Origin: Lachnospiraceae bacterium | GTDB lineage: Bacteria; Bacillota; Clostridia; TANB77; CAG-508 | Reading direction: 5' to 3' | Assembly: GCA_963621995.1 (NCBI GenBank) | Contig: CAVFFZ010000004.1 | Coordinates: forward strand, 16,876 to 80,875 | Length of the DNA: 64,000 nt | Part shown: positions 1,761 through 51,938 of the stretch, piece by piece | Layout: each line of letters begins with the position of its first letter | How positions within the stretch are numbered: position 1 is the first letter of the stretch | The notes under the pieces: generated by a model | The model's input: only the letters and a program-made list of their open reading frames with translations | Databases searched by the model: none | Told to the model about the DNA's origin: nothing | Made by a program: the position numbers and the translations under genes

Positions 1761-4091
1761 TTAATTTATTATTTCTAAACCAGCATATTTTGCCATTAAA
1801 CGCTTATGTCCTGCTTTATCAAAGTTAATGTCTACTTTTGCGTCTTCTCCTTCTTGTTCTATAGAATTTATAGTTCCTTCACCAAATTTCTTATGGTATA
1901 CTCGCATTCCTGATTGATATTTTGAAATGTCTATATCTTGTTTTGGTTTGTTTAAAGAATTTAAGAAATTTTCTGCAGTTCTAAACGCAAAGCCAGAATT
2001 GTTATCCACTTTTTGTGCTTTAGGTGTGGATATGCTTCCTGCAGCATTGTATGTTCTTACATCTGTTTCATTAAATTTGTATGTTTTTACTTTTCCAGCA
2101 TAATTTGTTCCATATGCCCAGCCATAATTTGAATCTTCAAAGTTTTCTTCTCTATTTCCATTCATCTCACTATAGCCTTCTAGTAGCTCTTCTGGAATTT
2201 CTTTAACAAAACGAGAAATTGCATTGTAACTTGTTGAGCCAAATATTGTTCTGTGCTTAGCACATGTTAAGTATAAATATTGTTTTGCTCTTGTAATTCC
2301 TACATAGAACAAACGTCTCTCTTCTTCTAATTCTTTTGGCTCTCCTATTGATTTGTAACCTGGGAATATTCCCTCTTCCATTCCTACTAAGAAAACGACT
2401 GGGAATTCTAGTCCTTTTGCACTATGAAGTGTCATTAATGTAACACTTTCGTCTGTCTCTTGTAAGTTATCTACATCACTAGATAATGTAATACTTTCTA
2501 AGAATTCATTTAATGAATTTTCTGCATATTCTTCTTCAAATTCCATTGCTACTGTTAATAACTCGTCCAAATTTTGAATTCTGCTTTCTGCTTCTACTGT
2601 ATTTTCTAGTTCTAAAGCTTTTGTGTATCCACTTTTGTTTAATACCATTTTTATTAATTCTGATATTTGTGTTTCATCTTTCTTGCTCTTTAGGTCTTCT
2701 ATTAATTCTATGAATTCTCTTGAATTTACAAATACTCTGTTTAATCCGTACTCATCTGCATGTTTTATTACCTCATACATTGAGTTTCCTGTTTGGTAAC
2801 TAATTTCTTCAACATTGTCTAAACTTGTTTTTCCTATTCCACGTTTTGGCTCATTTATAATTCTTTTTAGAGATATATTATCTGATTGATTTGCAATTAA
2901 ACGTAAATATGCAATTGTATCTTTTATTTCTTTTCTTTCATAGAATTTTAGCCCACCTACTACTTTGTATGGTATATCTTCTCTTAATAAAATATCTTCT
3001 ATTGCTCTTGATTGTGAGTTCATTCTATATAGAATTGAGAAGTCTGAATATTTAAAATATTCCTCTGCTTTTAAGTGATTTATTTGTTCAACGATGTATC
3101 TTGCTTCGTCATATTCGTCATCGCCTTGATAAATTGCTGGTAACTTTCCTTCTTCATTTTCTGTCCATAGTTTTTTCTCATATTTTGTCTCATTATTTTT
3201 TATTACATAATTTGCTGCTTTTAAAATATTTCCTGTACAACGATAATTTTGCTCTAATTTAATTATTTTTGTTCCTGGAAAGTCTTTTTCAAAGTTTAAT
3301 ATGTTAGAAATATCTGCTCCACGGAAACTATATATTCCTTGGTCATTGTCTCCTACAACTGTAATGTTTCCATACTTTGAAGCCAAAATTGTTACTAATG
3401 TAAATTGAGCTTTGTTTGTATCTTGGTATTCATCTACTAATACATATTTGAATTTTTCTGTGTAGTAGTCTAGTACCTCTGGATTTTCTGTTAATATTTT
3501 TATTGTATAATTTATTATATCGTCAAAATCTATTGCATTATTTTCTTTTAAACGTTTTTGATATAGAGTATATATTTCTCCTATTTTTGCTTTTCTAAAG
3601 TCTGCCTGATATTTAACACAGTATTGCATAGGTTCTAACATTTCATTTTTTGCATTGCTTATTTCTGATAAAACACTTCTATCCGTAAACATTTTGTCGT
3701 CTATATTTAATGCTTTTAAACATTCTTTTACTAATGTTCTTTGATCTTGAGTGTCAAATATTAGAAATGATGAATCAAAACCTATTCTGTCTATATATTT
3801 TCTTAAAATACGCACACAAATAGAATGGAATGTTCCCATCCATATATCTTTTGCAACATCTCCAACTAAATTTTCTATTCTTTCTTTCATTTCGTTAGCT
3901 GCTTTATTTGTGAATGTTATTGCTAATATATTCCATGGCGCTATGTTTTTTTCAGCTATTAGGTATGCTATTTTGTGTGTTAATACTTTTGTTTTACCAC
4001 TTCCTGCTCCTGCTATTACCAAGCATGGTCCCTCAGTTTCTAGTACCGCTTCTTTTTGTTTATTATTTAATCCTTCTATTAACTCTTGCAT
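1761..4091 (-). CDS. pcrA: ATP-dependent DNA helicase PcrA/UvrD
   Basis: Track ORF 1761..4118. Walker A is AGAGSGKTKVLT and UvrD motifs run throughout. The internal ATG at 4091 has a GGAG RBS at 9 nt; the ATG at 4118 has none. Confidence 0.9.
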   Translation of the reverse strand: MQELIEGLNNKQKEAVLETEGPCLVIAGAGSGKTKVLTHKIAYLIAEKNIAPWNILAITFTNKAANEMKERIENLVGDVAKDIWMGTFHSICVRILRKYIDRIGFDSSFLIFDTQDQRTLVKECLKALNIDDKMFTDRSVLSEISNAKNEMLEPMQYCVKYQADFRKAKIGEIYTLYQKRLKENNAIDFDDIINYTIKILTENPEVLDYYTEKFKYVLVDEYQDTNKAQFTLVTILASKYGNITVVGDNDQGIYSFRGADISNILNFEKDFPGTKIIKLEQNYRCTGNILKAANYVIKNNETKYEKKLWTENEEGKLPAIYQGDDEYDEARYIVEQINHLKAEEYFKYSDFSILYRMNSQSRAIEDILLREDIPYKVVGGLKFYERKEIKDTIAYLRLIANQSDNISLKRIINEPKRGIGKTSLDNVEEISYQTGNSMYEVIKHADEYGLNRVFVNSREFIELIEDLKSKKDETQISELIKMVLNKSGYTKALELENTVEAESRIQNLDELLTVAMEFEEEYAENSLNEFLESITLSSDVDNLQETDESVTLMTLHSAKGLEFPVVFLVGMEEGIFPGYKSIGEPKELEEERRLFYVGITRAKQYLYLTCAKHRTIFGSTSYNAISRFVKEIPEELLEGYSEMNGNREENFEDSNYGWAYGTNYAGKVKTYKFNETDVRTYNAAGSISTPKAQKVDNNSGFAFRTAENFLNSLNKPKQDIDISKYQSGMRVYHKKFGEGTINSIEQEGEDAKVDINFDKAGHKRLMAKYAGLEIIN

Positions 4092-4111
4092 TTTTGTTTC
4101 TCCATTTCTTA

Positions 4112-4140
4112 TTGACATATTTAATATTTTTGTTTATAAT
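4112..4140 (+). promoter_or_regulatory. consensus sigma-A promoter, TTGACA-17 nt-TATAAT
   Basis: TTGACA at 4112-4117, a 17-nt spacer, TATAAT at 4135-4140. It points away from pcrA with no plus-strand ORF downstream. Confidence 0.6.
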
Positions 4141-4146
4141 ATATTT

Positions 4147-4230
4147 AGAAAATGAGAAACCACAAACGTGGTTGCCTAAGATATGTTTTAACAACACATT
4201 GCTCGGGAAAGCTAGATGTGTTGTTTTTTA
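4147..4230 (+). ncRNA. candidate ~85-nt small RNA (putative antitoxin, or antisense to the pcrA leader)
   Basis: Bounded by the consensus promoter and an intrinsic terminator (AACAACACAT...ATGTGTTGTT plus TTTT, 4190-4229). It contains the hairpin AACCAC-AAAC-GTGGTT and is convergent with the 39-aa ORF. Confidence 0.4.
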
Positions 4231-4234
4231 TTGG

Positions 4235-4354
4235 TTATTTGCTTTTGCTCAAAATAATAACTAATGCTATTATCAAGGCTATGGCAATGATAGTTATAAA
4301 TATTAAAGAATAAAATAATATGTATATTATGCTCACTAATACTAACTCTATCAT
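4235..4354 (-). CDS. 39-aa hydrophobic peptide (type I toxin-like)
   Basis: Below the track size cutoff. AAAGGAGGTGAGGCTT-ATG; translation MIELVLVSIIYILFYSLIFITIIAIALIIALVIILSKSK, a single TM segment with a Lys-rich tail. Confidence 0.5.
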   Translation of the reverse strand: MIELVLVSIIYILFYSLIFITIIAIALIIALVIILSKSK

Positions 4355-4460
4355 AAGCCTCACCTCCTTTAATTGGAGGCAACCACATCTGCTATTCTCA
4401 CTTTCTATGTTATTTAGTCTATACTATTTTTTATATATTGTCTAGCGAACACTTAAACTT

Positions 4461-4928
4461 TTATAAAAAATTTGTTTGTATTTTTTCAATTATTTTTATT
4501 AAACACTTTTCTATTTCTTCGGCACAATTTTGATATACATTCATGTCATATCCCCATGGATCTTTTATATCCATATCTTGTCCATTTTTATCTAATTCTG
4601 CATATTCCTTCATTGTAAATACTTTTTCTTTTACTTCCGGGTACATATATAATACACTTTGTTTATGAGATTCTGTAGCACATAAGATTATATCCATTTC
4701 TTTAATTCTAGATTTTCTTATATTTGTTGCTCTATGTCTTTCTATATTTACATCATAATATTTTGCCGCTTTCACAGCATTATAAGTTGCATAGTCACCA
4801 TCTTCAGCATATATTCCACATGAACATATGTCTAAATCTAAATTATTATCTTTTGCTAGTTTTTTCATCATTCCTTCTGCCATTGCACTTCTACATATGT
4901 TGCCTGTACATATAAACATTATTTTCAT
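4461..4928 (-). CDS. low-molecular-weight protein arginine/tyrosine phosphatase
   Basis: N-terminal CTGNICRS P-loop (CX5R-S) and about 155 aa, typical of the LMW-PTP/YwlE family. Confidence 0.85.
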   Translation of the reverse strand: MKIMFICTGNICRSAMAEGMMKKLAKDNNLDLDICSCGIYAEDGDYATYNAVKAAKYYDVNIERHRATNIRKSRIKEMDIILCATESHKQSVLYMYPEVKEKVFTMKEYAELDKNGQDMDIKDPWGYDMNVYQNCAEEIEKCLIKIIEKIQTNFL

Positions 4929-5145
4929 ATTTTGTCCCTCTTCTCAACCATTTTTATATTATTATAATTGTTATGCTAACTTTTGTCTATAATATATATA
5001 AGATTATTAAATTTCATACATTACAATGCCTTTTTATAATCTATAAATTGTATGCTCCAAAGATTAACCTTTTGGTATTTTAGTCGTTTGAGTCGAAAGC
5101 AAGTTACGAATAAAATATGCAGAGGCAACGTCCCCAAAAAGATAA

Positions 5146-5443
5146 TTAGAGTGACATTGCGAGCATTCCTAATAGGAATCCGGCTATGTTTCCTATTGCT
5201 GTCATTCTTCCGTGATATAAACTATTTGATTCTGGTATTAGTTCGCCTGATACTATGTATAGCATTGCTCCTGCCGCAAAACTTAAACACATTGCTATTA
5301 CTTCTTGTGATATTCCACCAAGTATTGCTCCAAAAAATGCTCCTATTCCTGTTGTTACTCCTGATAATATTACGTAGAAAATTACTTTTCCTTTTTTCAT
5401 TCCTCCGTTTTTCATGGGCACTGCCATACTTATTCCTTCTGGT
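5146..5443 (-). pseudogene. ZIP-family zinc transporter, 3' fragment (split by the island)
   Basis: ...PEG-ISMAVPMKNGG...GELIPES... continues exactly where the 5' fragment at 15817-16271 breaks (HDVPEG|ISMAVP). Confidence 0.85.
5435..5443. repeat. 9-bp shared core CCTTCTGGT (left junction)
   Basis: Identical 9-mer at 15817-15825, sitting at the two break points of the ZIP gene. Confidence 0.8.
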
Positions 5444-5502
5444 TGACATCAAAGTAGGCAGTTTCAATTTTTATTTTTGACTAATTTAATATTAAATTAG
5501 CC

Positions 5503-7059
5503 TTATATTTTTTCTTTTAGGTTATTTAATTGTTTAAAATTAAAATACAAATCTACTTGTTTATCTTGATGAATTTCAATTCTATTGATAATTACTTTCA
5601 TAATTTCTGATGTTGGCTCTTTTAATTCTAAAAATTCCTTAATCAACTTTTTTATGTTTTCATTATCATCTTGTTTTGAAGTATTCTGCATCTCTTTCAT
5701 TTGTACATATTCTCTTTCTTTTTGTTCTGCCTCATCTATTAATTTTTTATATAGCCTCTCATACATTGTTTCAGTTATTTTCCCATTTAATTTATCAACA
5801 TACATTTGATCTATATTATCATTTATAAGTTTTACTTCATTTTCTAACTTTTTTAGTATTTTCTCATAATTATATTTAGTCCTACTCTTTCTAATATTTA
5901 GTTCTATTTTTTCACTATCAATATCTTCAAATAATTTTTTTATATAATCTAACACCATTTCTTCTAAATTCTCATAACTAAATCCATGTGAGGTACAAAG
6001 ATTTATCTTTGAGTTTCTACGGTAATTATTACATACCATATAATAATGACCATTCTTTTTTCCTCTCACACCTATTTTATGATGACATTCATAACAAAAA
6101 AGTAATCCATCTAATAAAAATGTATTTTTCTTTTCATTTCTGTTGTAACTTTGGACTATCACCATTTTTTGTACCCTATCAAAAATTTTTTTATCTATTA
6201 TTGGTGGGTGTGTATTTTCTACAACATTCCATTGTTCCTTTGGATTTGGTCGAAGTTTTCTATTTTTATAGCTTATTCTGCTCCTTTTATTTTGTTCTGT
6301 TGTTCCTATATACACTTTATTTCTTAATATATTTTTTATCGTTTTATTTTCCCAAAATGAGTCTTTATTATATCTTGATTGATTAGCCGTAGGAATATTA
6401 TTTGTGTTTAAATAATCTCTTATGACGCCAACTTGATTTCCTGCCAATGCCATATTAAATATAGTCTTTACTATTTCAGCTTCTGTCTCACAAATTATTA
6501 GTTTGTTTTTATCTTTTGAGTCTTTCATATATCCTATTGCTGTTTTTCCCCCTACCCACTTTCCTTGTTTTTGCATAGTATGTAGAGCTGTCCTAATTTT
6601 TTTTGACAAGTCTTTAGAATACATATCATTTAATATTGATTTAAAAGGTGCAATATCATTGTTACCATTTGACGTTTCAAAAGTATCTATTCCATCTGTT
6701 ACAGAAACATATCTAACATTATTTTCAGGAAACCATTTTTCTATATATTCTCCTGTTTCTATGTAATCACGTCCTAAACGAGATAAGTCCTTTGTTACAA
6801 CCATATTAACTTTTCCTGAATTAATATCTCTAATCATTCGCTGAAAGCCTGGTCTATTAAAATTTGTTCCAGTGTAGCCTTGGTCAATATAAATGTCTAT
6901 TAGTTCATACTGCCATCCTAATTTTTGGACATATTCTGTTAATAATGTTCTTTGATTTTTTATGCTTTCGCTTTCATCATATCCTCTATCTACATCTTCT
7001 TTCGATAACCTTATATAAACTGCTACCTTGTACATTGTTTCTTCTATTTGTTCAAGCAC
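5503..7059 (-). CDS. large serine recombinase
   Basis: 518 aa. N-terminal resolvase domain (VAVYIRLSKED...SRLGRD), followed by a recombinase domain, Cys-rich zinc ribbon and coiled-coil tail. Confidence 0.9.
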   Translation of the reverse strand: MLEQIEETMYKVAVYIRLSKEDVDRGYDESESIKNQRTLLTEYVQKLGWQYELIDIYIDQGYTGTNFNRPGFQRMIRDINSGKVNMVVTKDLSRLGRDYIETGEYIEKWFPENNVRYVSVTDGIDTFETSNGNNDIAPFKSILNDMYSKDLSKKIRTALHTMQKQGKWVGGKTAIGYMKDSKDKNKLIICETEAEIVKTIFNMALAGNQVGVIRDYLNTNNIPTANQSRYNKDSFWENKTIKNILRNKVYIGTTEQNKRSRISYKNRKLRPNPKEQWNVVENTHPPIIDKKIFDRVQKMVIVQSYNRNEKKNTFLLDGLLFCYECHHKIGVRGKKNGHYYMVCNNYRRNSKINLCTSHGFSYENLEEMVLDYIKKLFEDIDSEKIELNIRKSRTKYNYEKILKKLENEVKLINDNIDQMYVDKLNGKITETMYERLYKKLIDEAEQKEREYVQMKEMQNTSKQDDNENIKKLIKEFLELKEPTSEIMKVIINRIEIHQDKQVDLYFNFKQLNNLKEKI

Positions 7060-7130
7060 TATTCCTCCTTCCTATACTTGATAAAAAACAATTGAATTCA
7101 GCTTAAATTATAACTGATTTTTTAGAAAAT

Positions 7131-7247
7131 TCACATGTTAAAATGATAATTTTTCTCTAATATATCAGTTAATAGACGTTCTATTAAGCTTTCTAATTCT
7201 TCACCCTTTTCATCAAAATACATATTAATTTTAAATGATTCGTTCAT
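7131..7247 (-). CDS. 38-aa small ORF upstream of the recombinase (hypothetical)
   Basis: GCAGGAGGCTAT-ATG; MNESFKINMYFDEKGEELESLIERLLTDILEKNYHFNM. No recognisable family. Confidence 0.3.
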   Translation of the reverse strand: MNESFKINMYFDEKGEELESLIERLLTDILEKNYHFNM

Positions 7248-7373
7248 ATAGCCTCCTGCTGTTTTTTTATTATTCATTTAAATTTATATGCCTAGAAATG
7301 TTTATTATTCTGGTTTTAAACATATAAACCTTGTAGAGGTAACTATTAATTCCTCTATTATATATAACATTAA

Positions 7374-8612
7374 CTAACTCAGGATTATTGCGAAAACTGT
7401 CGTCAGTTTTTATCCGACCGAGAAATTGAAGGAACCTGTCCTATTTGTGGTGGTCATGCCAAGGGCGATCAATGTGATGACTGCTTGGCGACTTTTGATG
7501 CAAATGAACTTACTAACAAAACCTGTAAATATTGTGGTTCTCCTGTATCAAAGCACAGCAATGTCCATCTTTATTGGAAATTATCCAAATATCAGCACCA
7601 AATCGCTGATTATGTGAGTTCTCATGAACATTTATGGAGATTTAGCGCAATAAATGAATCTCGTAAATATCTTGCTAACTCTGGTTTGATGGACAGAGCA
7701 ATTACCCGTCAGCTCGATTGGGGTATCGATGTACCGGTTAAAGGATTTGATGACAAAAAAATCTATGTATGGATTGAACCTGTTTTGGGATATATCTCTG
7801 CTGGAAAAAAATATTGTGAAGAACATGGTCTGAATTGGGAAGACTTTTATAAAGATTCCTCTTCTTTGGATACATATTATGTTCATGGCAAGGATAATAT
7901 TCCTTTCCATACAATCATTTTCCCGGCGTTGTTAATTGCTTTAAACGAGAATTACCAGCTACCTAACCACATTGTATCTTCTCAGTTTCTCAACATTGAT
8001 GATGAGAAAATTTCCAAGAGCAAAGGCAATGGTATTACTGTCAAAGATTTGTTAAACACATATTCTTCTGATAGTATTCGCTATTGTTTGACTTACCAGT
8101 CCCCTGAATTGAAGGATACCAACTTTATACCTGAAATTCTCGAACAACTGCATAACAAAATTCTTGTTGGCGAGTATGGTAACTTTGTAAATCGCAACTT
8201 GGCTTTTCTTGTAAAAAAGTTCAAGGGTATTATTCCTGTCGGTACTGTTAACCCTGATGTAATTTCTACTATTCAGGAAACATATTTCAAAGTGGGCGCT
8301 CTCATTGAAAATGCTGAATTAAAAAATGCTATTCAGGAAATCCAGCAACTTGTTAAATATGCTAACAAGTATTATGATGAAAAACAACCTTGGATTCAAG
8401 TTAAACAGGATATTTTCGCATTTAACGATACCACCGCTACTTGTATCGCCTTGATTGTTAACATTGCAAATCTCTATGAACCTTTTATTCCTGATTCTTC
8501 TAACATAATTTACAATTTCTTTGGAATTTCTAAACCTAATTGGGAATATATTTCAGTTGAACCCGGAGCAACATTAAACAATGTTTCAATTCTCTTCACC
8601 AGAATTGACTGA
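7374..8612 (+). pseudogene. 5'-truncated methionyl-tRNA synthetase relic
   Basis: The open frame starts right after a TAA at 7371. It encodes DYCENCRQF...CPICG...CKYCG...KISKSKGN..., colinear with residues about 145 to the end of the intact MetRS at 13663-15288. The HIGH-motif N-terminus is missing. Confidence 0.8.
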
Positions 8613-8634
8613 CTTTTCAGCTCCTAAAGAAAAT

Positions 8635-8668
8635 AGAGGAGGAAAGCTATAATTAGCTTTTCTCCTCT
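8635..8668. terminator. bidirectional hairpin between the MetRS relic and the GNAT gene
   Basis: AGAGGAGGAAAGCT-loop-AGCTTTTCTCCTCT lies between two convergent genes. Confidence 0.5.
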
Positions 8669-8771
8669 TTCTATATTCCTATAATTTTAATTTCTAATTT
8701 TTTAACATTTCAGCCAATATACCATTGCCTTCAATTATTTTTCTACAAAATATCTCTTTATATACATTCTC

Positions 8772-9350
8772 TTACTTAAAATACTCATCCTTTAAAATAG
8801 AATAATATTTTATATCTATAAATTTGTTTTTTAAAAATTCTTTCTTCCTTAGAGTTCCCTCATATATAAGTCCATTTTTTTGCATTACCCTTTCAGAAGC
8901 TACATTCATTGAATCAAGCCTTGTTTCAATTCTCGTTAAATTCATTTCAGTAAATCCAAACTTGACTATTTCTTTTAAAGCTTCTGTCATTATTCCTTTA
9001 TTCCAATACTTTTTGTTAAGTACATAACCAATTTCAGCAGAAAAATTTTTTCTATCATATTGCACAAAATCAATGCTTCCAATCAGCTTAGAATTTTCCT
9101 TCCATTCAATTCCCCATGGTGCAATTTCATTTTTAGAATACTTTAGTAATACATTCTCAATATAATCTACAGCCATATCTATACTTTTATACGTATTCCA
9201 TGACAAGAATTGTGTAACCTCATTATCACTTGCATATTCATATAAATCATCAATATCACTTTTAGTAAATTTTCTAAGAATAAATCTTTTAGTTTCTATT
9301 TTGGGCAAATTAAAATTTTTTTCTTGTTTTAACATATCCACATAAACCAT
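8772..9350 (-). CDS. GNAT N-acetyltransferase (RimJ/RimL-like)
   Basis: 192 aa. TKRFILRKFTKSD...WNKGIMTEALKEIVKFGF is the typical RimJ/L-type acetyltransferase pattern. Confidence 0.75.
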   Translation of the reverse strand: MVYVDMLKQEKNFNLPKIETKRFILRKFTKSDIDDLYEYASDNEVTQFLSWNTYKSIDMAVDYIENVLLKYSKNEIAPWGIEWKENSKLIGSIDFVQYDRKNFSAEIGYVLNKKYWNKGIMTEALKEIVKFGFTEMNLTRIETRLDSMNVASERVMQKNGLIYEGTLRKKEFLKNKFIDIKYYSILKDEYFK

Positions 9351-9366
9351 CTTTTCACATATATTT

Positions 9367-10392
9367 CTAATTAAATAAATAATCTTTAATATGATTTTCT
9401 ACATTTGTATGTTCAATTAATTTTTGTAAGGTTGGCTGTTCTCCAATCATATCTACACCATTGAATATAGTATCTGTGTAAAATTCTCCTATAGAATTCG
9501 CAAAAATAACCCCCTTTGCACGAAAATCAACTTGATTCCTATAAACTCTTATTAACATTTCATTTTCTAATTCTTTATTTAATTCTTTTTCAAGTTTTTC
9601 TAATTTTTCATCAGAAACCTTTATTTCATCAAAAAAGTCCTTACATCTTTCTGAATAGTTCACAGGATAAAGTTGCCATTTTTCTATTTTATATTTACGT
9701 AAATATCTTCCAATTTCAATTATTGAGTCATAGTTTATTTTTGTAACCACCGTATGTACACTAACCCTTACATTGTTTTGCTTAAGTAATTCAATGTTTC
9801 TTTTTATTTTATTAATCTGATTTTCATCATAAGGTCTAACTTTATTTGAAATATCATTATCCATACTATCTATTGTTATTCTAACTGTAGTATTACTATT
9901 TTTTATCTTATCAATATATTTTTCTAAATTAGAAGTTGTACCATTTGTATCTATAACAATAGCACATTTACCATCTAATATGTCAATTATAGAACCAATT
10001 TCAGGACATAGTGTTGGCTCTCCTCCAGTTAATCCCACTGTTAGTGGTGATAATGTCAATATATGCTTTGCGGTTTCTTTTAGGAGTTCTCCATTTAATT
10101 TTGCAGGATTCATCTTATTATTAGCACAACAATAAATACAATCTAAATTGCATACATCTGAAACTAACCAATTTATTCTAAATGGATATTTAACTTTTAC
10201 ATTGGGTGAAATTGCATTTTTATTTTCTTCTAAAAATTTTTCAAATTTATTTTTTTCTAATTTTTCATTTTTTGAAAAATATTCTTTTAATTCAACTCCT
10301 TCATAAAATTTATAAATATTCTTTACTATATCATAAACTGTTATACCATTTAATTCTTCTCTTATAAATAATTCTTTATCAATATTATACAT
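9367..10392 (-). CDS. radical SAM enzyme
   Basis: CNLDCIYC (CX3CX2C) and GGEPTL motifs. There is no C-terminal SPASM cysteine cluster. Confidence 0.8.
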   Translation of the reverse strand: MYNIDKELFIREELNGITVYDIVKNIYKFYEGVELKEYFSKNEKLEKNKFEKFLEENKNAISPNVKVKYPFRINWLVSDVCNLDCIYCCANNKMNPAKLNGELLKETAKHILTLSPLTVGLTGGEPTLCPEIGSIIDILDGKCAIVIDTNGTTSNLEKYIDKIKNSNTTVRITIDSMDNDISNKVRPYDENQINKIKRNIELLKQNNVRVSVHTVVTKINYDSIIEIGRYLRKYKIEKWQLYPVNYSERCKDFFDEIKVSDEKLEKLEKELNKELENEMLIRVYRNQVDFRAKGVIFANSIGEFYTDTIFNGVDMIGEQPTLQKLIEHTNVENHIKDYLFN

Positions 10393-10406
10393 ATATATTC
10401 CCCTTT

Positions 10407-12083
10407 CTATTTTGTTTTATTTTCCATATACAAATTAATATACTTAACCAAATTACTAAACTCGCTTCTTTTTCCTGCTGATACTCTTATACATTCTCCT
10501 AAAAAATTAGGATATGATTTTTTTATATTTCTAATTATAATTCCATTTGTTTGAAGATACTCCGTTAAGTCATTAACATCAATCAAGTCATCAAATCTTA
10601 TTAAAATAAATCCTGTGTTTACATTTATTATTTCTTTTATATATTTTGAATTTAAATTTGAAATAAGATATGTAAAATTTTTCTGGATTTTATTTATTAA
10701 TTTTATATCATTAAATCTATTAAAATAATTTATCACAAATAATTCAGAAAATATATTAATAGAAAACAATATTCTAATTTTATTAATTTCTTTTGCATTA
10801 ACTTCGTTTGTAATAATAAAGCCACACCTTAAACCTGGCACTCCAAAAAATTTAGACACTGATGTAATAACTGATAAATTAATATTATTTATTGTTTCAT
10901 TAATTAATGTTCTTTCAGAATAGTCAGCATTAAATACAAGTTCTGTTTCATCTATTACAAAATGACAATTTTTATTTTTTCTAATAATTTTCAACAAATT
11001 TTCTCTATTTAAAGTATCTAATGTTGGATTATTAGGATTACATATAAATATCATATCTACATTTTTACTTAATTCATTAATTTTATCATATTCATAATAT
11101 CTATTATCTTTCAATGACATTTTTATAATGTCACAATTATTTCTTTTACATGCGCTTTCATATCCCCAAAAAGTTGGAGTAAAAACTCCAACTTTTTTTA
11201 TATTAAGTATTCTTAATAGATAATCAAATGCTTCTGTAGAACCATTAGTTACAATTGTAGTTTCTATTGGCACATTCAATTTATCTGATATTACTCTATT
11301 TACTTTATTTGATGTTGCAGAGGGATAAGTTTTTAATAAATTCACATTCGAGGCTAATTTAAATCTCATTTTTTTGTCAGGTAAATACGGATTTAAATTA
11401 TTACATAAAATTATTGTTTTTCTCTTTTTTTTATATCTATTTAATGCCTTCTTTATTTGTTTTATTAAATGCTTTTCCTTTTCAATACTATTGTTTTTAT
11501 ATCCCAAGAACATCTCACCTTCATTTCCAGTATTAGCATCGCAATAAAGGTTTCTTAGTATATTTTCTGGTGATAGATCATTTAAACTTGCATATTCAAT
11601 AATTGTATTAAGTATAAGATTCCAAGCTTTCTCTTCATATTTTTTAACAACTTTTTTGCAATTAATTGATATGTGTTTTGTTGTAAGTATATTTAATATT
11701 AGTCTTTTTCTCATTTCTTCTGATGTAAGAAATTCTTCTGTTTTCACAATTGGATTAATTGAAACTATACCTCTATTTACAAAGGGATTATCAATAATTG
11801 CGTCTTTTATATCTTGATACGATAATATTAATTTGTTTTCGTAAGGGACTTCTTTGTCAATTTTTAAATTATTTTCATGATGAAACTCTATAACTTTTTT
11901 AGTTATTTTTTCTTTATCTTCAGCACAAATATTATCACAAATGATGCATACATCCAAATCGCTTGAATTAGTATCTAAAATATTTGAACCATATATTATT
12001 ATTCCAAAATCCAGTTTTGGAAATTCATTATACATTTCAGTCTTAAATTTTAGGCATAAACTATTCACTTTATTTTCCTCCAT
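10407..12083 (-). CDS. nucleotidyltransferase / class I-II aminotransferase fusion protein
   Basis: N-terminus YGS...SSDLDVCII (Pol-beta NTase motif). C-terminal half has FICNPNNPT and SVSKFFGVPGLRCG (HisC/CobD-like PLP lysine region). Confidence 0.7.
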   Translation of the reverse strand: MEENKVNSLCLKFKTEMYNEFPKLDFGIIIYGSNILDTNSSDLDVCIICDNICAEDKEKITKKVIEFHHENNLKIDKEVPYENKLILSYQDIKDAIIDNPFVNRGIVSINPIVKTEEFLTSEEMRKRLILNILTTKHISINCKKVVKKYEEKAWNLILNTIIEYASLNDLSPENILRNLYCDANTGNEGEMFLGYKNNSIEKEKHLIKQIKKALNRYKKKRKTIILCNNLNPYLPDKKMRFKLASNVNLLKTYPSATSNKVNRVISDKLNVPIETTIVTNGSTEAFDYLLRILNIKKVGVFTPTFWGYESACKRNNCDIIKMSLKDNRYYEYDKINELSKNVDMIFICNPNNPTLDTLNRENLLKIIRKNKNCHFVIDETELVFNADYSERTLINETINNINLSVITSVSKFFGVPGLRCGFIITNEVNAKEINKIRILFSINIFSELFVINYFNRFNDIKLINKIQKNFTYLISNLNSKYIKEIINVNTGFILIRFDDLIDVNDLTEYLQTNGIIIRNIKKSYPNFLGECIRVSAGKRSEFSNLVKYINLYMENKTK

Positions 12084-13574
12084 CTAGTTCATTTTATTTA
12101 CAATTTCTTCTGCTTTTTTTCTGACATATGAAAGCATTTTTGTTATATCATTTTTCTGTATATTATCATTTCCTGACATATATCTTAATGGATAAACAAT
12201 TGTATCTTTTTTCAAAACGCCTAAATTATCTGGTATTGAAAATTGATGCAAATAATATATTTCTTCATTATCCATAACTTCTTTTATCTGCTTGTTTATA
12301 TTATTAAGTTCATCAATATTATATTTAATATCGTTTTTATTACCAACATACATAAATATAACTGAATTTATATTAATATCATTTAGCAGAACAAAATCAT
12401 TTGATTTGTTTATCTCATCTCCTAAAAAAATCGCCATTTCATGTCTTCGTTCTATTATATTTCCTATCTCTTTTATGCCTAAATTTTTCAATACAAACCA
12501 TGCTTTTAGAGATATCCAACTTTTCGAGCCTATAAATGGTGTGACTTGTCCAAATGCATATGGTTCTTGCATTATTAAATCAGATGTTGATGATATCATT
12601 TTTATCTTTTCTGGATCATTTATTAATAATGCACTTAATGTATATGGTATCATTAATACTTTATGAGGATCTGTTGAAATACTATCAAATAACTCTAATC
12701 CTTTTATCTTATTTTTTAATTTTTCACTAAAAGCAAGTGAAAATCCATGACATGCATCAGCATGTAACCAGATATTTTTATCTTCGCTTTTAACGACTTC
12801 GTAAACCCCTTGTAAATCTTCAATTGACATAGTTCTGCTGTCTCCTACATAGGCAACAACACACATTATTTTCCCCTTATTATCCTTTATTGTTTCTTTT
12901 AATTTTTCCAAGTCATATTTGAAATTATTTGTTTGAACTTCTATAATATTATTTCCACATCCTAACCACATACAACTACTTCTAATACTATAATGTCCTA
13001 TTCCCTTCGGAATAATTACCTTATAATCACTTGGATTTGTTACTCCTTTGCTCATTGTATTTTTTCTGTGGTTTTCTCTTGCTAAAAGCATAGCTGTTGC
13101 ATTACTTCCAGTACCTCCATATGTAATAATCCCTCCAACATCATATATATTTTTAATTGATTTAATATTATAACCTACTAATTCTCTTAGCCATTTAATT
13201 ACAGCTATCTCCATAAATGTTGCAATAGGTGCACAAAAACTTGAATTTATTAAGTTTTGTTGAAGTAAATCAGTGAAAATTGCACCGCTTAATCCTGCTA
13301 TTGAATTTCCTGCATCAGGAAATCCCATAAAATTAATGGTAGAAAAGTTTGAGCAATATGGTAAAATTTCTTCTTTGAATTTTTCTAGTAACTTATCTAA
13401 TTCAACACCTTTTATTGGTGTTTCCAAAAGCTCTTGCATTTGCTCCTCTGCAAATTTATTTTGAGCAAAGTTTTCTTGACACTTAAAATCTATTCCTATA
13501 TCTATTACTTTTTTTAGTTCTTCCTTTACTTCATCTTTATTTTTATTATTAAGTATATTATTCACCTCAAACAC
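12084..13574 (-). CDS. group II PLP-dependent amino-acid decarboxylase
   Basis: 496 aa. GGTGSNATA, HADACHG and STDPHK (PLP lysine) motifs. GTG start; abuts the next gene with no gap. Confidence 0.8.
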   Translation of the reverse strand: MFEVNNILNNKNKDEVKEELKKVIDIGIDFKCQENFAQNKFAEEQMQELLETPIKGVELDKLLEKFKEEILPYCSNFSTINFMGFPDAGNSIAGLSGAIFTDLLQQNLINSSFCAPIATFMEIAVIKWLRELVGYNIKSIKNIYDVGGIITYGGTGSNATAMLLARENHRKNTMSKGVTNPSDYKVIIPKGIGHYSIRSSCMWLGCGNNIIEVQTNNFKYDLEKLKETIKDNKGKIMCVVAYVGDSRTMSIEDLQGVYEVVKSEDKNIWLHADACHGFSLAFSEKLKNKIKGLELFDSISTDPHKVLMIPYTLSALLINDPEKIKMISSTSDLIMQEPYAFGQVTPFIGSKSWISLKAWFVLKNLGIKEIGNIIERRHEMAIFLGDEINKSNDFVLLNDININSVIFMYVGNKNDIKYNIDELNNINKQIKEVMDNEEIYYLHQFSIPDNLGVLKKDTIVYPLRYMSGNDNIQKNDITKMLSYVRKKAEEIVNKMN

Positions 13575-13662
13575 AATCTTTCTTTTTCATATATATAAAT
13601 AAAAGTAAAATTAGCTTTTATTTATACTATTTTACTTTTATTATTACCTATTTTTATTAATA

Positions 13663-15288
13663 TCAAATTCTCTCGAAAAGTATTTCTATATTGTCAAGGG
13701 ATATTTTTTCTTTTATTTGTATTTGATTCCATGATGGTTTTTCAATTTTTAAATATTCCCTTAATTTATTAGATGTTTGTGGCATTATTGGTTCAAGCAA
13801 ATTAGATAAATTAGCAATTACATTAGCACAAGTATAAATAGTATTATTAAATTCTTCCATATTTTCTTTCTTCTGTATCCATGGTTTTCTTTCATCATAA
13901 TACTTATTTCCTATCTCAATTAATTCAACTATTTTATTACATGCTTTTTTAAATTCCAGATTTTCTATATATTCAGAAACTATTTTATAAGTTTCCTCAA
14001 TTTTTTCAATCATCTGTTTATCCATAACACCTAAAGGAATTTCATCTAAGCCTTTAAATTTTAAAGTCCTATTTACAAAATTTCCAAATTTGTTGACCAA
14101 ATCAGAATTATGGACATTAACATAATTTTCTATTGTGAAATCCACATCTTTATTTTCTGGTCCATAAGCTATCATATAATATCTTAAAGAATCTACATCA
14201 TATTCTTCTACCATTTGTTGTATTGTTATACTATTTCCTTTACTTTTTGATATTTTTTCAGAATTTATATTCAAGTATTGTGTTGCAACCATTACATCTG
14301 GTAAATGAAATTTTTCTTCCATAGCCAACAATAATGATGGTAAGATTATAGTATGAAATGTTATATTATCTTTTCCATGACACATATACATTTTAATATT
14401 ATTATCTTCTTTCCAAAACTCTTCCCAATTTAAGCCTTTCTCTTCACAAATTTTTTGTGTTGCAGTAACATATCCTAATACAGCATCAATCCATACATAC
14501 ATTTTTTTATCTTCAAAACCTTCAATTGGAATATCAACACCCCAAGATAAGTCTCTTGTTACTGCTCTATCTTTCAACCCTTCTTTTAAATATTTTTCAG
14601 TTTCATTTATTGATGCAATTCGCCAATTTTTTCGGTTTTTTTTGGCATATTGTTCTATCTGATTTTGAAATTTTGATAATGCAATATATAAATGGATATT
14701 TTCTTTTTGTATAGTTTTATTTCCACATTCTCTACAAGTTGCTCCTATTAAATCATCTTCATTAGGGACATATCCACAATCACATTGATCTCCTTTTGTA
14801 ATTAACCCACAATTAGGACAAACTAATTCCAATTCTCTATCAGATTCAAATTTATCACAATGTTCACAATATGGTTGCATGTTCTTTTTAGGATAAATAT
14901 ACTTATTTTTGTACATTTTTAAAAACATTTCTTCTACATGTTTCTTATGATAATCATCGCAAGTTTTTGTATATATATCATAAGAAAAATTCATTTTTTC
15001 AAAAATATCTTTAAATTCATTATGATACTTTTCTGCAATATTTTTTGGCTCTATTTTCTCACGTTTAGCTCTTTCCGTAATAGGTGTTCCATGACAATCT
15101 GTTCCGGAAACATATAGTACATTATCATTTAATAACTCATGATATCTTTTTAGGAAATCTCCCGAAATTAATGCTGCTAGATGTCCTAGATGTAAAGAGC
15201 TATTTGCATAAGGCCAGGCCCCACCAATCAATACATTTCTTTTATTTTTCGTTTCACTTTCTTTAAAATAACATACCTCATTATCCAA
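13663..15288 (-). CDS. metG: methionyl-tRNA synthetase, short form without a C-terminal tRNA-binding domain
   Basis: HIGH motif (SLHLGH), KMSKS motif (KISKS), and CxxC knuckles (CEHCDK/CPNCG, CDCG/CRECG). The probable start is the TTG at 15288, 7 nt after GGGGGAGGG; the track ORF extends to 15306. Confidence 0.9.
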   Translation of the reverse strand: MDNEVCYFKESETKNKRNVLIGGAWPYANSSLHLGHLAALISGDFLKRYHELLNDNVLYVSGTDCHGTPITERAKREKIEPKNIAEKYHNEFKDIFEKMNFSYDIYTKTCDDYHKKHVEEMFLKMYKNKYIYPKKNMQPYCEHCDKFESDRELELVCPNCGLITKGDQCDCGYVPNEDDLIGATCRECGNKTIQKENIHLYIALSKFQNQIEQYAKKNRKNWRIASINETEKYLKEGLKDRAVTRDLSWGVDIPIEGFEDKKMYVWIDAVLGYVTATQKICEEKGLNWEEFWKEDNNIKMYMCHGKDNITFHTIILPSLLLAMEEKFHLPDVMVATQYLNINSEKISKSKGNSITIQQMVEEYDVDSLRYYMIAYGPENKDVDFTIENYVNVHNSDLVNKFGNFVNRTLKFKGLDEIPLGVMDKQMIEKIEETYKIVSEYIENLEFKKACNKIVELIEIGNKYYDERKPWIQKKENMEEFNNTIYTCANVIANLSNLLEPIMPQTSNKLREYLKIEKPSWNQIQIKEKISLDNIEILFERI

Positions 15289-15318
15289 TAAAAATCCCTC
15301 CCCCATTAAAATATGTTT

Positions 15319-15347
15319 ATAATATCATATTAATAGTATTTTGTCAA
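15319..15347 (-). promoter_or_regulatory. sigma-A promoter, TTGACA-17 nt-TATTAT, for the island MetRS
   Basis: Minus sense: TTGACA (15347-15342), a 17-nt spacer, TATTAT (15324-15319), about 20 nt upstream of the SD. Confidence 0.55.
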
Positions 15348-15688
15348 TTTTTTCCTGCCACTTTTTCAATTTAAATATTTTAGTTAGTTACTATTTACAC
15401 CTTTAAAATAATTTGCTAAAAACCATAGTATATATAATTTTTTTATTTAATAAATTATTATATTTTTTCTCTTAAAAATACTTTAACTTCATGTCTCTAT
15501 AGTTCTATTGTTTTTTAAACTCTCCTTTATCTTATCATCCTTGTAAATATCTCAATAAGTTTATCATAAATTGCCCATTTAAGGCAAGAATGCCCTATCT
15601 CTCAATAGTACCTCCCTACCTCAACATGCAAAAGTTGGAGATAGAAACTCTATAAATGCTTAAATATCTGTATTTACTCATTTTTAAA

Positions 15689-15739
15689 AGTGGGGAATTT
15701 TTTTCAAGATAAAATCTTTCAAAATTCCCTACTTTTTTG
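15689..15739. terminator. bidirectional intrinsic terminator inside the right end of the island
   Basis: AGTGGGGAATTTT-loop-AAAATTCCCTACT with T/A runs on both sides. It would stop read-through from the truncated ZIP gene. Confidence 0.6.
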
Positions 15740-15812
15740 TACTGTAAATTCATAAAAAATTTGAATTCAAATCATTTTATCTAGCATATTTAACTTGCTG
15801 TCTACTTTGTAA

Positions 15813-16271
15813 TCAACCTTCTGGTACGTCATGCAGGCATATTGCAATTGCCAGTGAATAACCTAATGTTATTGATGCTCCAAAGCCAGATCCTATTGCT
15901 AAGCCTTCCGGAAAATTATGAAGTGCTAAACCTATACTTACTATTATTCCCGTTTTTAATAAATTGCTTGTTGTATTTGTATTCATTTTATTTGTATTAA
16001 ACTTTTTTTGTACTAATACGTCACATATTATCATTATTATTATTCCTGCAATAATTCCCATAAGTACACTGAAAATGTTTGATATTTCCATTGCTTCTGG
16101 TATTAAATCAAAGCATATTATTGCTAACATTAGTCCTGAGGCAAATGCTAAAATAAAACTTAAAAATTTATTTGACTTTCTTTTGAAACATACTCCTATT
16201 ATTCCTCCTATTGTTGTTCCAAATGTCCCAAAAAATAAGCCTATTAATGTTGTTTTTAATATTTCATTCAA
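15813..16271 (-). pseudogene. ZIP-family zinc transporter, 5' fragment (split by the island)
   Basis: TM-rich sequence with HNFPEGLAIG and ...LHDVPEG, then a TGA supplied by the first bases of the island (GGT-TGA). Confidence 0.85.
15817..15825. repeat. 9-bp shared core CCTTCTGGT (right junction)
   Basis: Identical to 5435-5443. Confidence 0.8.
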
Positions 16272-16334
16272 ATTAAAACACTCCTTAAAATTAAACTTTT
16301 TATTAGTTTATTTTTAAGAAGTGTGATTTATTCG

Positions 16335-17396
16335 TTATTCTTCTTCACCTTTTAATTTTTCTGCTCTGTCTGCTGCTATTAAGTTATCTATCATTTCGTC
16401 TAAATTTCCATTTAAAAAATCTTCAAATTGATATACATTCATTCCTATTCTGTGGTCTGTTATACGTCCTTGTGGATAGTTATATGTACGTATTTTTTCA
16501 CTTCTGTCTCCACTACCTACTTGACTTTTTCTTTCATTTGCTATTTGACTATCTCTTTTTTGTTTTTCTATTTCATATAGTCTAGAACGAAGTAATCTCA
16601 TTGCATATTCTCTATTTTGTACTTGTGAACGTTCTGTTTGGCATTCTGCAACAACTCCTGTTGGAACGTGAATTAATCTTACTGCTGATGATGTTTTGTT
16701 TACGTGTTGTCCTCCAGCACCAGATGCTCTATAAACTTCCATTTTTATATCTGCTGGGTTTATATCTATTTCTACATCTGCTACTTCAGGAAGTACTGCT
16801 ACTGTTGCAGTTGAAGTATGTATTCTACCACTACTTTCTGTATCTGGCACACGTTGTACACGATGTACTCCACTTTCAAATTTCAGTCTACTATATGCTC
16901 CTTTTCCTGTAATCATAAAAGATATTTCTTTATATCCTCCAAGACCTGTTTCATTTTCATTTACTACTTCTAGTTTCCAGTGTTTTTTCTCTGCATACAT
17001 AGAATACATTCTAAATAGTGTTCCTGCAAATAGTGCTGCTTCTTCTCCACCAGCACCTCCACGTATTTCGCATATAACGTTTTTATCATCATCTGGATCT
17101 TTTGGAATTAAAAGTATTTTTAATTCTTCTTCTATTTTTGGCATAGCTTCTTTATTTGCAAGCATTTCTTCTTCAGCTAAATCTTTCATTTCTGGGTCAT
17201 TCATCATTTCTTTTGCTTCTTCATATGCTTGTTTTGCTTTTTTATATTCTCTGTATTTTTGTACTATTGGTTCTAATTCTGCATGTTCTTTCATATATTC
17301 GCGCCATTCGTTTGTTCTTGAAATTACTTCTGGATCGCTTATTTTTGTTGTTAATTCTTCATAACGTTTTTCTACCGTCTCTAATTTATCAAACAT
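16335..17396 (-). CDS. prfA: peptide chain release factor 1
   Basis: [11 protein letters not shown] (GGQ) and an RF1-type body, 353 aa. Confidence 0.9.
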
Positions 17397-31518: not shown

Positions 31519-31595
31519 GGTTCAGTAGCTCAGCTGGATAGAGCAACGGATTTCTAATCCGTGGGTCGGGGGTTCGAATCCCTCCTGGATCACCA
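31519..31595 (+). tRNA. tRNA-Arg (anticodon UCU)
   Basis: Hand-folded cloverleaf, 77 nt: acceptor GGTTCAG/CTGGATC, anticodon arm ACGGA-TTTCTAA-TCCGT, T arm GGGGG-TTCGAAT-CCCTC, encoded CCA. Confidence 0.85.
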
Positions 31596-36668: not shown

Positions 36669-36778
<110 letters not shown>

Positions 36779-51570: not shown

Positions 51571-51938
51571 AAGTTTTTTCTCCTTTCGTACTTTATTTAC
51601 GATGATATTTTCTTTGCCCCTCATCATCTGGGAATTATTAGATGGTAATTTACATTACTCCACTGGAATTTAACCACTCCGACTCTGTCCGAGTTGCACC
51701 CTATACGATGAGTTAAGGCTATGCAAGTGTCTCATTATGTTGTATCTAACAACTGAAATATTCAATTTTCAATGTCCTATCTAAAGAATTTAGGGAAATT
51801 CTATTGACTTTTCAAAGTAATTATTGTAATCTATATATATCAACAAGTAATTACTTGGCTTTATCAAAGTATAACGTAAGCTTTATAATTTGTCAAGCGA
51901 TTACAATAAAATTTTTAAATATTTTTTAGGAGTGGAAA

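Follow-up and report, generated by a model that had tools for sequence, protein, structure and literature searches.

The gin element of Bacillus cereus, which resides in gerE, is moved by the large serine recombinase (LSR) GirC together with GirX, a directionality factor of 42 amino acids (aa) (PMC5595907), and further gene-intervening elements are skin, with SpoIVCA (CD1231/CD1234 in C. difficile), and SPbeta, with SprA/SprB (PMC5025042, PMC5499854). We analysed a 64-kb stretch of DNA from a Lachnospiraceae bacterium, an uncultured member of the gut Clostridia (contig CAVFFZ010000004.1 of assembly GCA_963621995.1, positions 16,876-80,875; hereafter the 'window', to which coordinates refer) in which a gene for a ZIP-family protein, ZIP1, is split within its second HxxPEG motif by an island of 10,382 bp (5444-15825). 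In all likelihood this is an integrated, non-viral mobile island moved by its own LSR, and it constitutes a new family within a known kind of element, the LSR-borne integrative islands; a literature search yielded no paper combining a serine recombinase with ZupT or the ZIP family. An earlier note made from the letters of the window had proposed such an LSR-borne island in a ZIP gene, and domain searches, empty sites and parallel islands support this proposal. The present analysis adds a second island in a ZIP paralogue, three target genes, the point of strand exchange, a micro-gene with a promoter-like block, and a genome without an intact recognisable zinc importer.

As in the case of gin, a coding sequence is interrupted at a common core of 9 bp by a small, non-viral, cargo-carrying element that depends on an LSR for its movement, such that precise excision rebuilds (here, would rebuild) the gene, a micro-protein gene is conserved beside the LSR gene, and the host is a spore former. 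The gene split by gin is, however, a sporulation regulator, whereas the target described here encodes a metal importer and near-identical LSRs use three target genes; moreover, excision and the role of the micro-protein are here proposed from sequence, and the 38-aa protein is likened to GirX by position and size, not by sequence. Skin and SPbeta likewise result from LSR integration in a coding sequence, and SprA is among the best solved matches of the LSR described here. In skin and SPbeta a small factor under a mother-cell sigma factor sets directionality, and a sigma-E-like block is conserved here. Unlike these prophage-derived elements, which reside in sporulation genes, the islands considered here measure 2.4-10.4 kb, carry no phage genes and occupy housekeeping-type targets. 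As to the traits of sporulation gene-intervening elements, we observe as target a ZIP importer gene located between prfA and the gene of a low-molecular-weight (LMW) phosphatase, and a sigma-E-like block that is putative.

The N-terminal part of ZIP1 (15813-16271, minus strand, 152 aa) ends with ...AICLHDVPEG, and the TGA that closes it (15813-15815) is island DNA. Its C-terminal part (5146-5443, minus strand) proceeds with PEG-ISMAVPM... up to the native stop and matches residues 150-247 of the rejoined protein with 100% identity (tblastn); the frame leading into the open reading frame (ORF) at 5146-5427 reads PEGISMAVPMKNGG (PEG-IS-MAVPMKNGG). The 9-mer CCTTCTGGT occurs only twice in the window when both strands are scanned, that is, at the left (5435-5443) and the right (15817-15825) junction, and corresponds on the coding strand of the left copy to ACCAGAAGG, the codons for P-E-G. 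Removal of 5444-15825 yields a single frame of 247 aa containing ...HDVPEGISMAVPM..., which matches Pfam Zip with an E-value of 1.4e-30 (107 bits; cut-off 35.1) and exhibits HNFPEG at residues 117-122 and HDVPEG at residues 147-152. Hence, what the earlier note had stated, namely a ZIP gene split at a 9-mer shared by both junctions and an ORF of about 246 aa with the second HxxPEG motif restored upon rejoining, could be confirmed. With a score above the Pfam gathering threshold and with both the HNxPEG and the HDxPEG motif, rejoined ZIP1 is a ZIP-family protein; it should not be filed as ZupT itself, its score being 145.3 bits against the ZupT equivalog model NF003243 of NCBIfam (cut-off 252). 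The gene order in this neighbourhood is prfA, ZIP, the LMW phosphatase gene and pcrA.

As a separate observation, the native coding sequence AGAAGGAATAAGT-ATG (5427-5443) resembles a ribosome-binding site with start codon for the C-terminal half, the in-frame ATG at 5427 opening the ORF of 93 aa (5146-5427) that lies within it. The LSR gene, which has the same orientation, ends 59 bp upstream of this half, and no terminator is predicted in the interval; a separate 93-aa product is conceivable.

The ends of the island form imperfect inverted repeats, GGTTGACATCAAAGTAGGCAG on the LSR side (5441-5461) and CTGTCTACTTTGTAATCAACC on the cargo side (15798-15818), the former matching the reverse complement of the latter at 17 of 21 positions. 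Each represents one arm of the predicted attP: the circular joint would be a 46-bp dyad around TTCT (core CCAGAAGG on the coding strand) reading ctgcctactttgatgtcaa-CCAGAAGG-ttgattacaaagtagacag on the ZIP1 coding strand, and the predicted products of excision are attB CATGACGTACCAGAAGGAATAAGTATGGCAGTG and attP CTGCCTACTTTGATGTCAACCAGAAGGTTGATTACAAAGTAGACAG. That attL, attR and a dyad attP of about 46 bp are readable, as the earlier note had claimed, is borne out by the match of the arms and by their conservation in relatives, the LSR-side arm being kept as CTGyCTAnnTT...CAA in ~50 family members. Core CCAGAAGG and inverted-repeat ends are common to the observed junctions of five islands in four genomes (including the second island of the same genome and those in genomes G019, G012 and G030).

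When it is assumed that attL consists of the left half of attB and the right half of attP, and attR of the left half of attP and the right half of attB, differences between attL and attR cores serve to map the exchange point. Such differences are found at loci L086 and L088 (attL core CCAGAAGG, attR core CCAGAGGG) and in islands of the ABC class introduced below (attB TCAGAAGC, attR CCAGAAGC), and they place strand exchange within core positions 2-5 (CAGA), consistent with a central GA at the dyad centre, which is where GA is expected for the 2-bp staggered cut of an LSR. The locus thus combines a dyad attP in the range of 40-50 bp, a distinct attB, a short common core and reciprocal exchange without duplication, as is characteristic of LSR attachment sites. 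A 9-bp direct repeat on both sides of an island would also be left by a DDE-type transposase as its target-site duplication. However, the repeat copies in L086 and L088 differ at one base exactly as reciprocal exchange predicts, which already contradicts such a transposon; the asymmetry identifies the 9-bp repeat as att identity rather than target duplication and thus excludes DDE-type insertion. In addition, no transposase gene is present among the island ORFs and dozens of independent islands share one and the same insertion site, so that the probability left to this explanation is practically negligible.

In the mechanism that we propose for the LSR-borne island, a circular form carrying the 46-bp dyad attP would be paired by the LSR with an attB located on the ZIP1 codons H-D-V-P-E-G-I-S-M, and strands would be exchanged within the CAGA of the core, consistent with a central GA and without duplication. 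As the sequence shows, ZIP1 now consists of a 152-aa N-terminal half closed by the island stop and a promoterless C-terminal half; it is presumably inactive while the island is present, and precise excision would restore it. The micro-protein might act as directionality factor for excision, possibly expressed from a sporulation (sigma-E) dependent promoter.

The LSR gene (5503-7059, minus strand) is intact, encodes 518 aa and ends 59 bp from the left junction, where the earlier note had placed it at about 60 bp. Its product matches Pfam Resolvase (PF00239, 1.9e-24, profile positions 1-145 of 145), Recombinase (PF07508, 3.4e-26) and thereafter the zinc ribbon Zn_ribbon_recom (PF13408, 1.3e-12), with motifs YIRLS and SRLGRD visible in the translation. 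By these domain criteria the protein is a large serine recombinase, and catalysis of attP x attB recombination is predicted. The nearest solved structures are the N-terminal catalytic domain of TnpX (2mhc, E 5.7e-26) and SprA (9dxh, E 5.4e-24), the alignment with SprA spanning residues 12-495. The best NCBIfam matches, to CcrC (107 of 900 bits required), CcrB (101 of 900) and CcrA (67 of 700), are far under cut-off, as are the matches of XisF models.

The similarity to TnpX suggests a comparison with Tn4451/Tn4453 (TnpX) and Tn5397 (TndX), clostridial LSR elements that excise as circles and exchange at a GA dinucleotide, GA being the core centre here. To our knowledge, TnpX needs no separate directionality factor. 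The island described here, however, carries none of TnpV, TnpY, TnpZ, a relaxase or conjugation genes and thus falls outside the Tn4451/Tn4453 family, and its targets are long and specific (~30 bp conserved), in contrast to the loose targets of Tn4451 and Tn5397. Resemblance also exists to SCC/Ccr of staphylococci, that is, to LSR cassettes with variable cargo and without transfer genes of their own that use one conserved chromosomal gene. SCC integrates into the 3' end of rlmH and leaves this gene intact, whereas the gene considered here is cut mid-way and the LSR scores below the Ccr equivalog cut-offs.

One may then ask whether the island is a prophage, an integrative conjugative element or a Tn4451-type mobilisable transposon with its own transfer machinery. 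The TnpX domain as best solved match would be in keeping with this, as would the finding, detailed below, that the same cargo cassette resides on a Tn4451-like (L103) and a Mob_Pre (L101) element. On the other hand, the island ORFs include no capsid, tail, terminase, relaxase, TnpV, type IV secretion or conjugation gene, and among the matches listed from 50,697 phage and 72,556 plasmid records none exceeds 37% identity to the LSR, every match being below 60%. An element with transfer machinery of its own is thus highly improbable. The island is rather built from a conserved core, comprising the promoter-like block, the 38-aa micro-gene, the LSR gene and the att arms, and an exchangeable cargo.

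Independent support for integration into a formerly intact gene is provided by empty sites. A six-frame search of 60 related genomes revealed that many members of the genus have an uninterrupted ZIP1 orthologue, and five of these orthologues are 93-98% identical to the rejoined protein. In the 12 loci that were compared (L001-L012, from 12 species), an intact 247-aa gene is present with 80-98% identity to rejoined ZIP1, and in all 12 the left flank (to ~5443-5451) directly adjoins the right flank (from 15817) in syntenic order, with identities over the aligned segments of 67%-96% (89-96% in the five closest). In L001, for example, window segments 3651-5451 and 15817-16336 lie next to each other, overlapping by 15 bp, and are 94-95% identical. 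The earlier note had named as tests of its proposal that the two ZIP halves be contiguous in related genomes and that the rejoined protein align with ZIP transporters across the junction, and both were found to hold. An apparent 9-nt read across the empty site at a contig end of G012 was dropped, since the left ends of islands in relatives start similarly (aata.t.c) and 9 nt cannot decide.

Both ZIP1 halves are free of stops and frameshifts. Compared with its nearest intact orthologues, split ZIP1 exhibits dN/dS of 0.04-0.06 at dS of 0.22-0.25 and is thus as constrained as pairs of intact genes, which range from 0.07 to 0.19; the median for split-split pairs is higher (0.22 versus 0.10), but confounded by larger divergence. 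We dropped dN/dS as proof of ZIP1 function, because a recent insertion accounts equally well for the low values, and the undecayed halves fit either recent insertion or continued selection. In sister species with 94-96% flank identity the site is either empty or occupied by a different island, and the insertions thus appear to be recent and recurrent.

This bears on the question of whether the island is an immobile relic, left by a single integration after which excision was lost and ZIP1 became dead and dispensable in the gut. Such a history would agree with the truncated gene in the cargo (see below), with an identical split N-terminal half and an identical LSR on three contigs of a public collection, and with the lack of a circular joint in the collections searched. 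It is, however, at odds with the intact frames of the LSR, with its catalytic motifs, and of the micro-gene, with both att arms being intact and fitting the family consensus, with the undecayed, low-dN/dS ZIP1 halves, and with the recent and recurrent insertions in close sisters. We thus consider a relic very unlikely.

Several points nonetheless weigh against an island that is mobile by means of its own LSR. Using a degenerate 45-nt pattern (two mismatches allowed in the 401 genomes), we detected no attP joint in metagenome contigs from JGI, in IMG/VR or in 401 genomes belonging to the order, and 104 fetched loci likewise gave 0 matches; as negative evidence this is weak, since circles are seldom retained in assemblies, yet direct evidence for mobility of this copy is absent from the assemblies searched. 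Furthermore, the exact rejoined ZIP1 protein was not found in a collection of 15 billion proteins. The nearest intact alleles (P0059 and P0060) have 3-4 differences (98-99% aa identity), and since their flanks are just 92-96% identical, they do not demonstrate presence/absence polymorphism within one species. Finally, the attB base in L086 and L088 was deduced rather than observed, and it is by analogy that a role is assigned to the micro-protein and a sigma factor to its promoter.

Species-representative genomes, scanned once with the island LSR as query, contain at least 80 LSR loci with 65-94% identity, nearly all from metagenome-assembled genomes of uncultured human and animal gut Clostridia (including Clostridium sp. 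CAG:571 and CAG:273), a few records being titled Bacilli, Lachnospiraceae or Bacteroidaceae. Immediately downstream of the LSR gene we find a ZIP1-type C-terminal half at 34 loci, a ZIP2-type one at 13, and the C-terminus of an ABC ATPase (PEA-ISMSDRV...) at 15-17, the remaining loci being unresolved or at a contig end. The three target classes share the CCAGAAG core and are (i) ZIP1 at HDxPEG, (ii) ZIP2 at HNIPEG and (iii) an ABC ATPase gene at HDI(S/P)EA. The ZIP1 site is also interrupted in G012, G030 and G019, where the G019 island shares 83% DNA identity from the ZIP1 C-terminal half through the LSR gene and most of the micro-gene and then proceeds into unrelated cargo. Complete ZIP1-type islands span 2,442-9,043 bp, compared with 10,382 bp in the window, and when the flanks are rejoined, 12 of 16 give an uninterrupted ZIP frame and the remaining four exhibit single-base shifts at CGG (e.g., TCT-CGGT-GAG as S-G-E). 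Single-base frameshifts located exactly at CGG in otherwise intact ZIP C-terminal halves were noticed in L060, L064, L070, L096, L097, L099 and L100, and in CGG-shift lineages the LSR matches break at residue 205 (LSR genes of L085-L089 and L095-L100).

A FastTree phylogeny of 52 LSRs comprises one ZIP2-only clade, one ZIP1-only clade and a large clade in which ZIP1, ZIP2 and ABC targets are interleaved among near-identical proteins, with 17 label changes being needed; the LSR of the window is sister to two ABC-inserted copies. Hence, one LSR type uses several natural sites. The ABC gene of the genome under study, coding for a NitT/TauT-type ABC ATPase (contig C5:35819-36577), is intact and carries CATGATATTTCAGAAGCAATAAGTATGTCAG, its site reading CATGATATT-TCAGAAGC-AATAAGTATGTCAG as compared with CATGACGTA-CCAGAAGG-AATAAGTATGGCAG in ZIP1. 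Since the same LSR clade also inserts in the ABC ATPase gene, targets seem to be defined by sequence resemblance and not by gene function. Such integrases would home to DNA encoding the invariant PEG motif, a site that cannot drift, with similar codon strings in unrelated genes serving as alternative landing sites.

A tblastn search of the whole assembly revealed a second LSR (LSR2), 78% identical over residues 153-518 at C15:3-1100, with the first 27 residues at the end of C26. The corresponding second island spans C26:4046-15117 and C15:1-1178 and is flanked by the halves of a ZIP paralogue, ZIP2, which is ~35% identical to ZIP1. The junctions read ...ITIHNIPEG followed by tagatttcaaagtagacag... 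on C26, and ...ctgcctattttcacatcaa followed by CCAGAAGG GATGGCAGTAGGT (PEGMAVGV...) on C15; core and kind of arms are thus the same as in the ZIP1 island, and ZIP2 is split at its first HNxPEG motif (HNIPEG). From the two contig parts and ~375 bp of the LSR2 gene missing between them, the length of the second island is estimated at ~12.6 kb. Its cargo comprises a histidine phosphatase, two radical SAM enzymes, a methyltransferase, three nucleotide-kinase-like proteins, a pyrophosphatase-like protein and a UvrD/HelD-like helicase. When the whole assembly, whose completeness is rated at 100%, was scanned with Pfam Zip, the four ZIP halves were the only matches and no intact ZIP gene was detected; no ZnuA-family protein was found in this genome, nor in 35 of 37 genomes of the genus. 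Both of the zinc importers that can be recognised in this genome are thus interrupted, and zinc uptake would either proceed via unrecognised routes or depend on excision.

The second component of the conserved core is the micro-gene (7131-7247, minus strand; the mechanical ORF reaches 7277), which encodes MNESFKINMYFDEKGEELESLIERLLTDILEKNYHFNM (38 aa) with its start methionine at 7247. It is located 70-330 bp upstream of nearly all of the 80 related LSR genes as well as of the LSR2 gene, and 68 copies yield a pN/pS of 0.40, with F5, K6 and N8 being invariant and F11, D12, E13, G15, E17 and E19 nearly so. We conclude that it is a real gene. Its product has no Pfam match and is, by position and size like GirX, a candidate recombination directionality factor. 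The promoter-like block, GAATAAT-N13-CATATAAA (7283-7310, minus strand), precedes the micro-gene by 35 nt, and its hexamer-like ends and their spacing are conserved across LSR subfamilies while the spacer is variable. It resembles the sigma-E consensus of B. subtilis, kmATATT-N14-CATACAhT. The sigma-E-like pattern has 12 matches in the genome, one of them 36 nt upstream of the gene for SpoIIP (Pfam 4e-70), and on C22 the similar GATAAGT-N13-CATACGTT precedes a SpoIIID-like gene; no clear match was found upstream of spoIVA, spoIIM and spoIID. The subfamily of the second island lacks the block, its upstream region being of another kind and containing a long hairpin. Sporulation-linked expression of micro-gene and LSR is on this analogy a possibility, to which we would give clearly less than even weight.

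As separate observations on these components, a conserved ~40-nt hairpin (GGGTAGGTGTGTGATAG...CTACCC) takes the place of the block upstream of the micro-gene at C26:14700-14850 and in L024, L027, L033, L081 and L093. The genome contains at least seven additional LSR-like genes with 23-42% identity to the island LSR (on C39, C42, C1, C3 and C19, and two on C24), of which those on C39 and C42 are preceded by a similar micro-ORF. SpoIIID-like matches occur at two places, C6:57574-57717 (model positions 34-81, at a contig end) and C22:18885-19046 (positions 3-54), which might represent either two paralogues or one gene interrupted by a contig end or an insertion.

It is tempting to refine the picture of a mobile LSR-borne island by regarding it as a developmental or conditional switch in the manner of skin, SPbeta and gin, a skin-like developmental excision having been raised as a possibility in the earlier note: micro-protein and LSR, expressed from a sigma-E-type promoter in the mother cell during sporulation or upon another cue, would excise the island precisely and thereby rebuild ZIP1 and/or release the circle. 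The host possesses core sporulation genes (Spo0A, SpoIVA, SpoVS, SpoIIP, SpoIID, SpoIIM and SpoIIID), the conserved block shares its pattern with spoIIP and is similar to that at spoIIID, and precedents exist in the 42-aa GirX (PMC5595907) and in the factor of skin(Cd), which is under sigma-E (PMC5025042). Moreover, both ZIP genes are split in a genome devoid of ZnuA, as are most genomes of the genus, and the ZIP1 halves are undecayed, with low dN/dS relative to intact neighbours. Intact halves are, however, equally explained by recent insertion, ZIP is not among the known genes of sporulation and is surrounded by genes of housekeeping type (prfA, the LMW phosphatase gene and pcrA), and the same LSR clade also enters the ABC ATPase gene. 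The block is missing from the subfamily of the second island, its sigma assignment depends on the B. subtilis consensus and two genes (the chance of a coincidence is estimated at ~0.1), and no excision product was found in the assemblies searched. On balance, the circumstantial support for a switch is modest, and we regard it as a tentative refinement that is unlikely.

In its furthest-reaching form, which we regard as decidedly unlikely, the ZIP islands would be conditional switches on the apparent sole recognisable zinc importers, with sigma-E driving the 38-aa factor and the LSR in the mother cell such that both islands excise and rebuild ZIP1 and ZIP2. If so, ZIP would be rebuilt, e.g., for metal loading in spore maturation, cargo circles would be freed from a cell about to lyse, and the element would spread without germ-line cost. 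The 38-aa protein would then be the smallest known directionality factor, and the islands, with their several targets, would represent the first case of gene-intervening elements whose action lies outside the sporulation regulon.

Irrespective of such a switch, the many natural sets of LSR and att sites, with a 46-bp attP, three attB classes, a candidate 38-aa factor and a minimal element of 2.4 kb, may be of value as orthogonal tools for genome integration and in investigations of how target sites are read by LSRs.

The cargo of the ZIP1 island is headed by a strong sigma-70-like promoter (15319-15347, minus strand; TTGACA-17-TATTAT with TG, i.e. TGnTATTAT, 11 of 12 matches and the best in the region), from which five co-directional genes on the minus strand, with a methionyl-tRNA synthetase (MetRS) gene first, form an operon. 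This complete extra MetRS (13663-15306, 547 aa; Pfam tRNA-synt_1g 1.3e-124, TIGR00398 metG 470 bits versus 336) is archaeal/eukaryote-like, having as nearest solved structures those of P. abyssi (1rqg) and human MetRS, and is just 26% identical to the other MetRS gene (C22); Rfam detected no riboswitch or T-box in its 510-bp leader or elsewhere in the island. It is followed by a group II decarboxylase dependent on pyridoxal phosphate (PLP) (12084-13574, 496 aa; Pfam Pyridoxal_deC 1.1e-43) and by a 558-aa fusion (10407-12083) of a HisC/CobD-like PLP aminotransferase or decarboxylase (Pfam Aminotran_1_2 4e-29, residues 224-549) with a ~215-aa N-terminal domain that gives only sub-threshold matches to Pol-beta nucleotidyltransferases (E 0.006 and 0.04). 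Next come a viperin-like radical SAM enzyme (9367-10392, 341 aa; Pfam Radical_SAM 1e-18, PADLOC pVip models 3.1e-23), for which confirmed prokaryotic viperin was rejected as a label (NCBIfam 71 bits, cut-off 180), and a RimL/RimJ-type GNAT acetyltransferase (8772-9350, 192 aa; Pfam Acetyltransf_3 9.7e-33), whose solved relatives include RimL-like proteins and MccE (3r95, E 5.5e-7). G+C content of the island is uneven (0.21-0.35; flanks 0.27-0.30).

Convergent to this operon and abutting the core module is a 5'-truncated remnant of a second MetRS gene (7380-8612, plus strand), with an ORF of 375 aa at 7485-8612, similarity extending to ~7380, and a match to positions 158-390 only of Pfam tRNA-synt_1g. 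A terminator-like hairpin with a 15-bp stem (8635-8668) is located between it and the GNAT gene. The remnant is 47-48% identical to the complete island MetRS and has a full-length counterpart at the same place and on the same strand in L103. That this second MetRS is cut at its 5' end just where cargo joins the core module suggests that the cargo was captured or trimmed by recombination at this boundary.

The cargo cassette recurs elsewhere, with the fusion protein being 69-90% identical: MetRS, PLP decarboxylase, aminotransferase fusion and radical SAM enzyme are found on an element with tyrosine integrase and Mob_Pre in L101 and L102, and the cassette also resides on a Tn4451-like element (LSR, TnpV, MobC, relaxase) in L103. 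A 40%-identical cassette with RelA/SpoT-like and methyltransferase genes is located beside spoIVA and spoVIF in L104, with no mobility genes in the stretch examined. That the cassette is always paired with MetRS points to a small-molecule pathway with a MetRS of its own that either protects or serves it, and occurrence of the MetRS-led operon on three types of mobile element in gut Clostridia may be taken as the mark of a selected, transferable trait. Elsewhere in the window, Rfam detected a pemK cis-regulatory RNA (51660-51738, 51.3 bits) and two tRNA genes (31519-31592 and 36705-36778).

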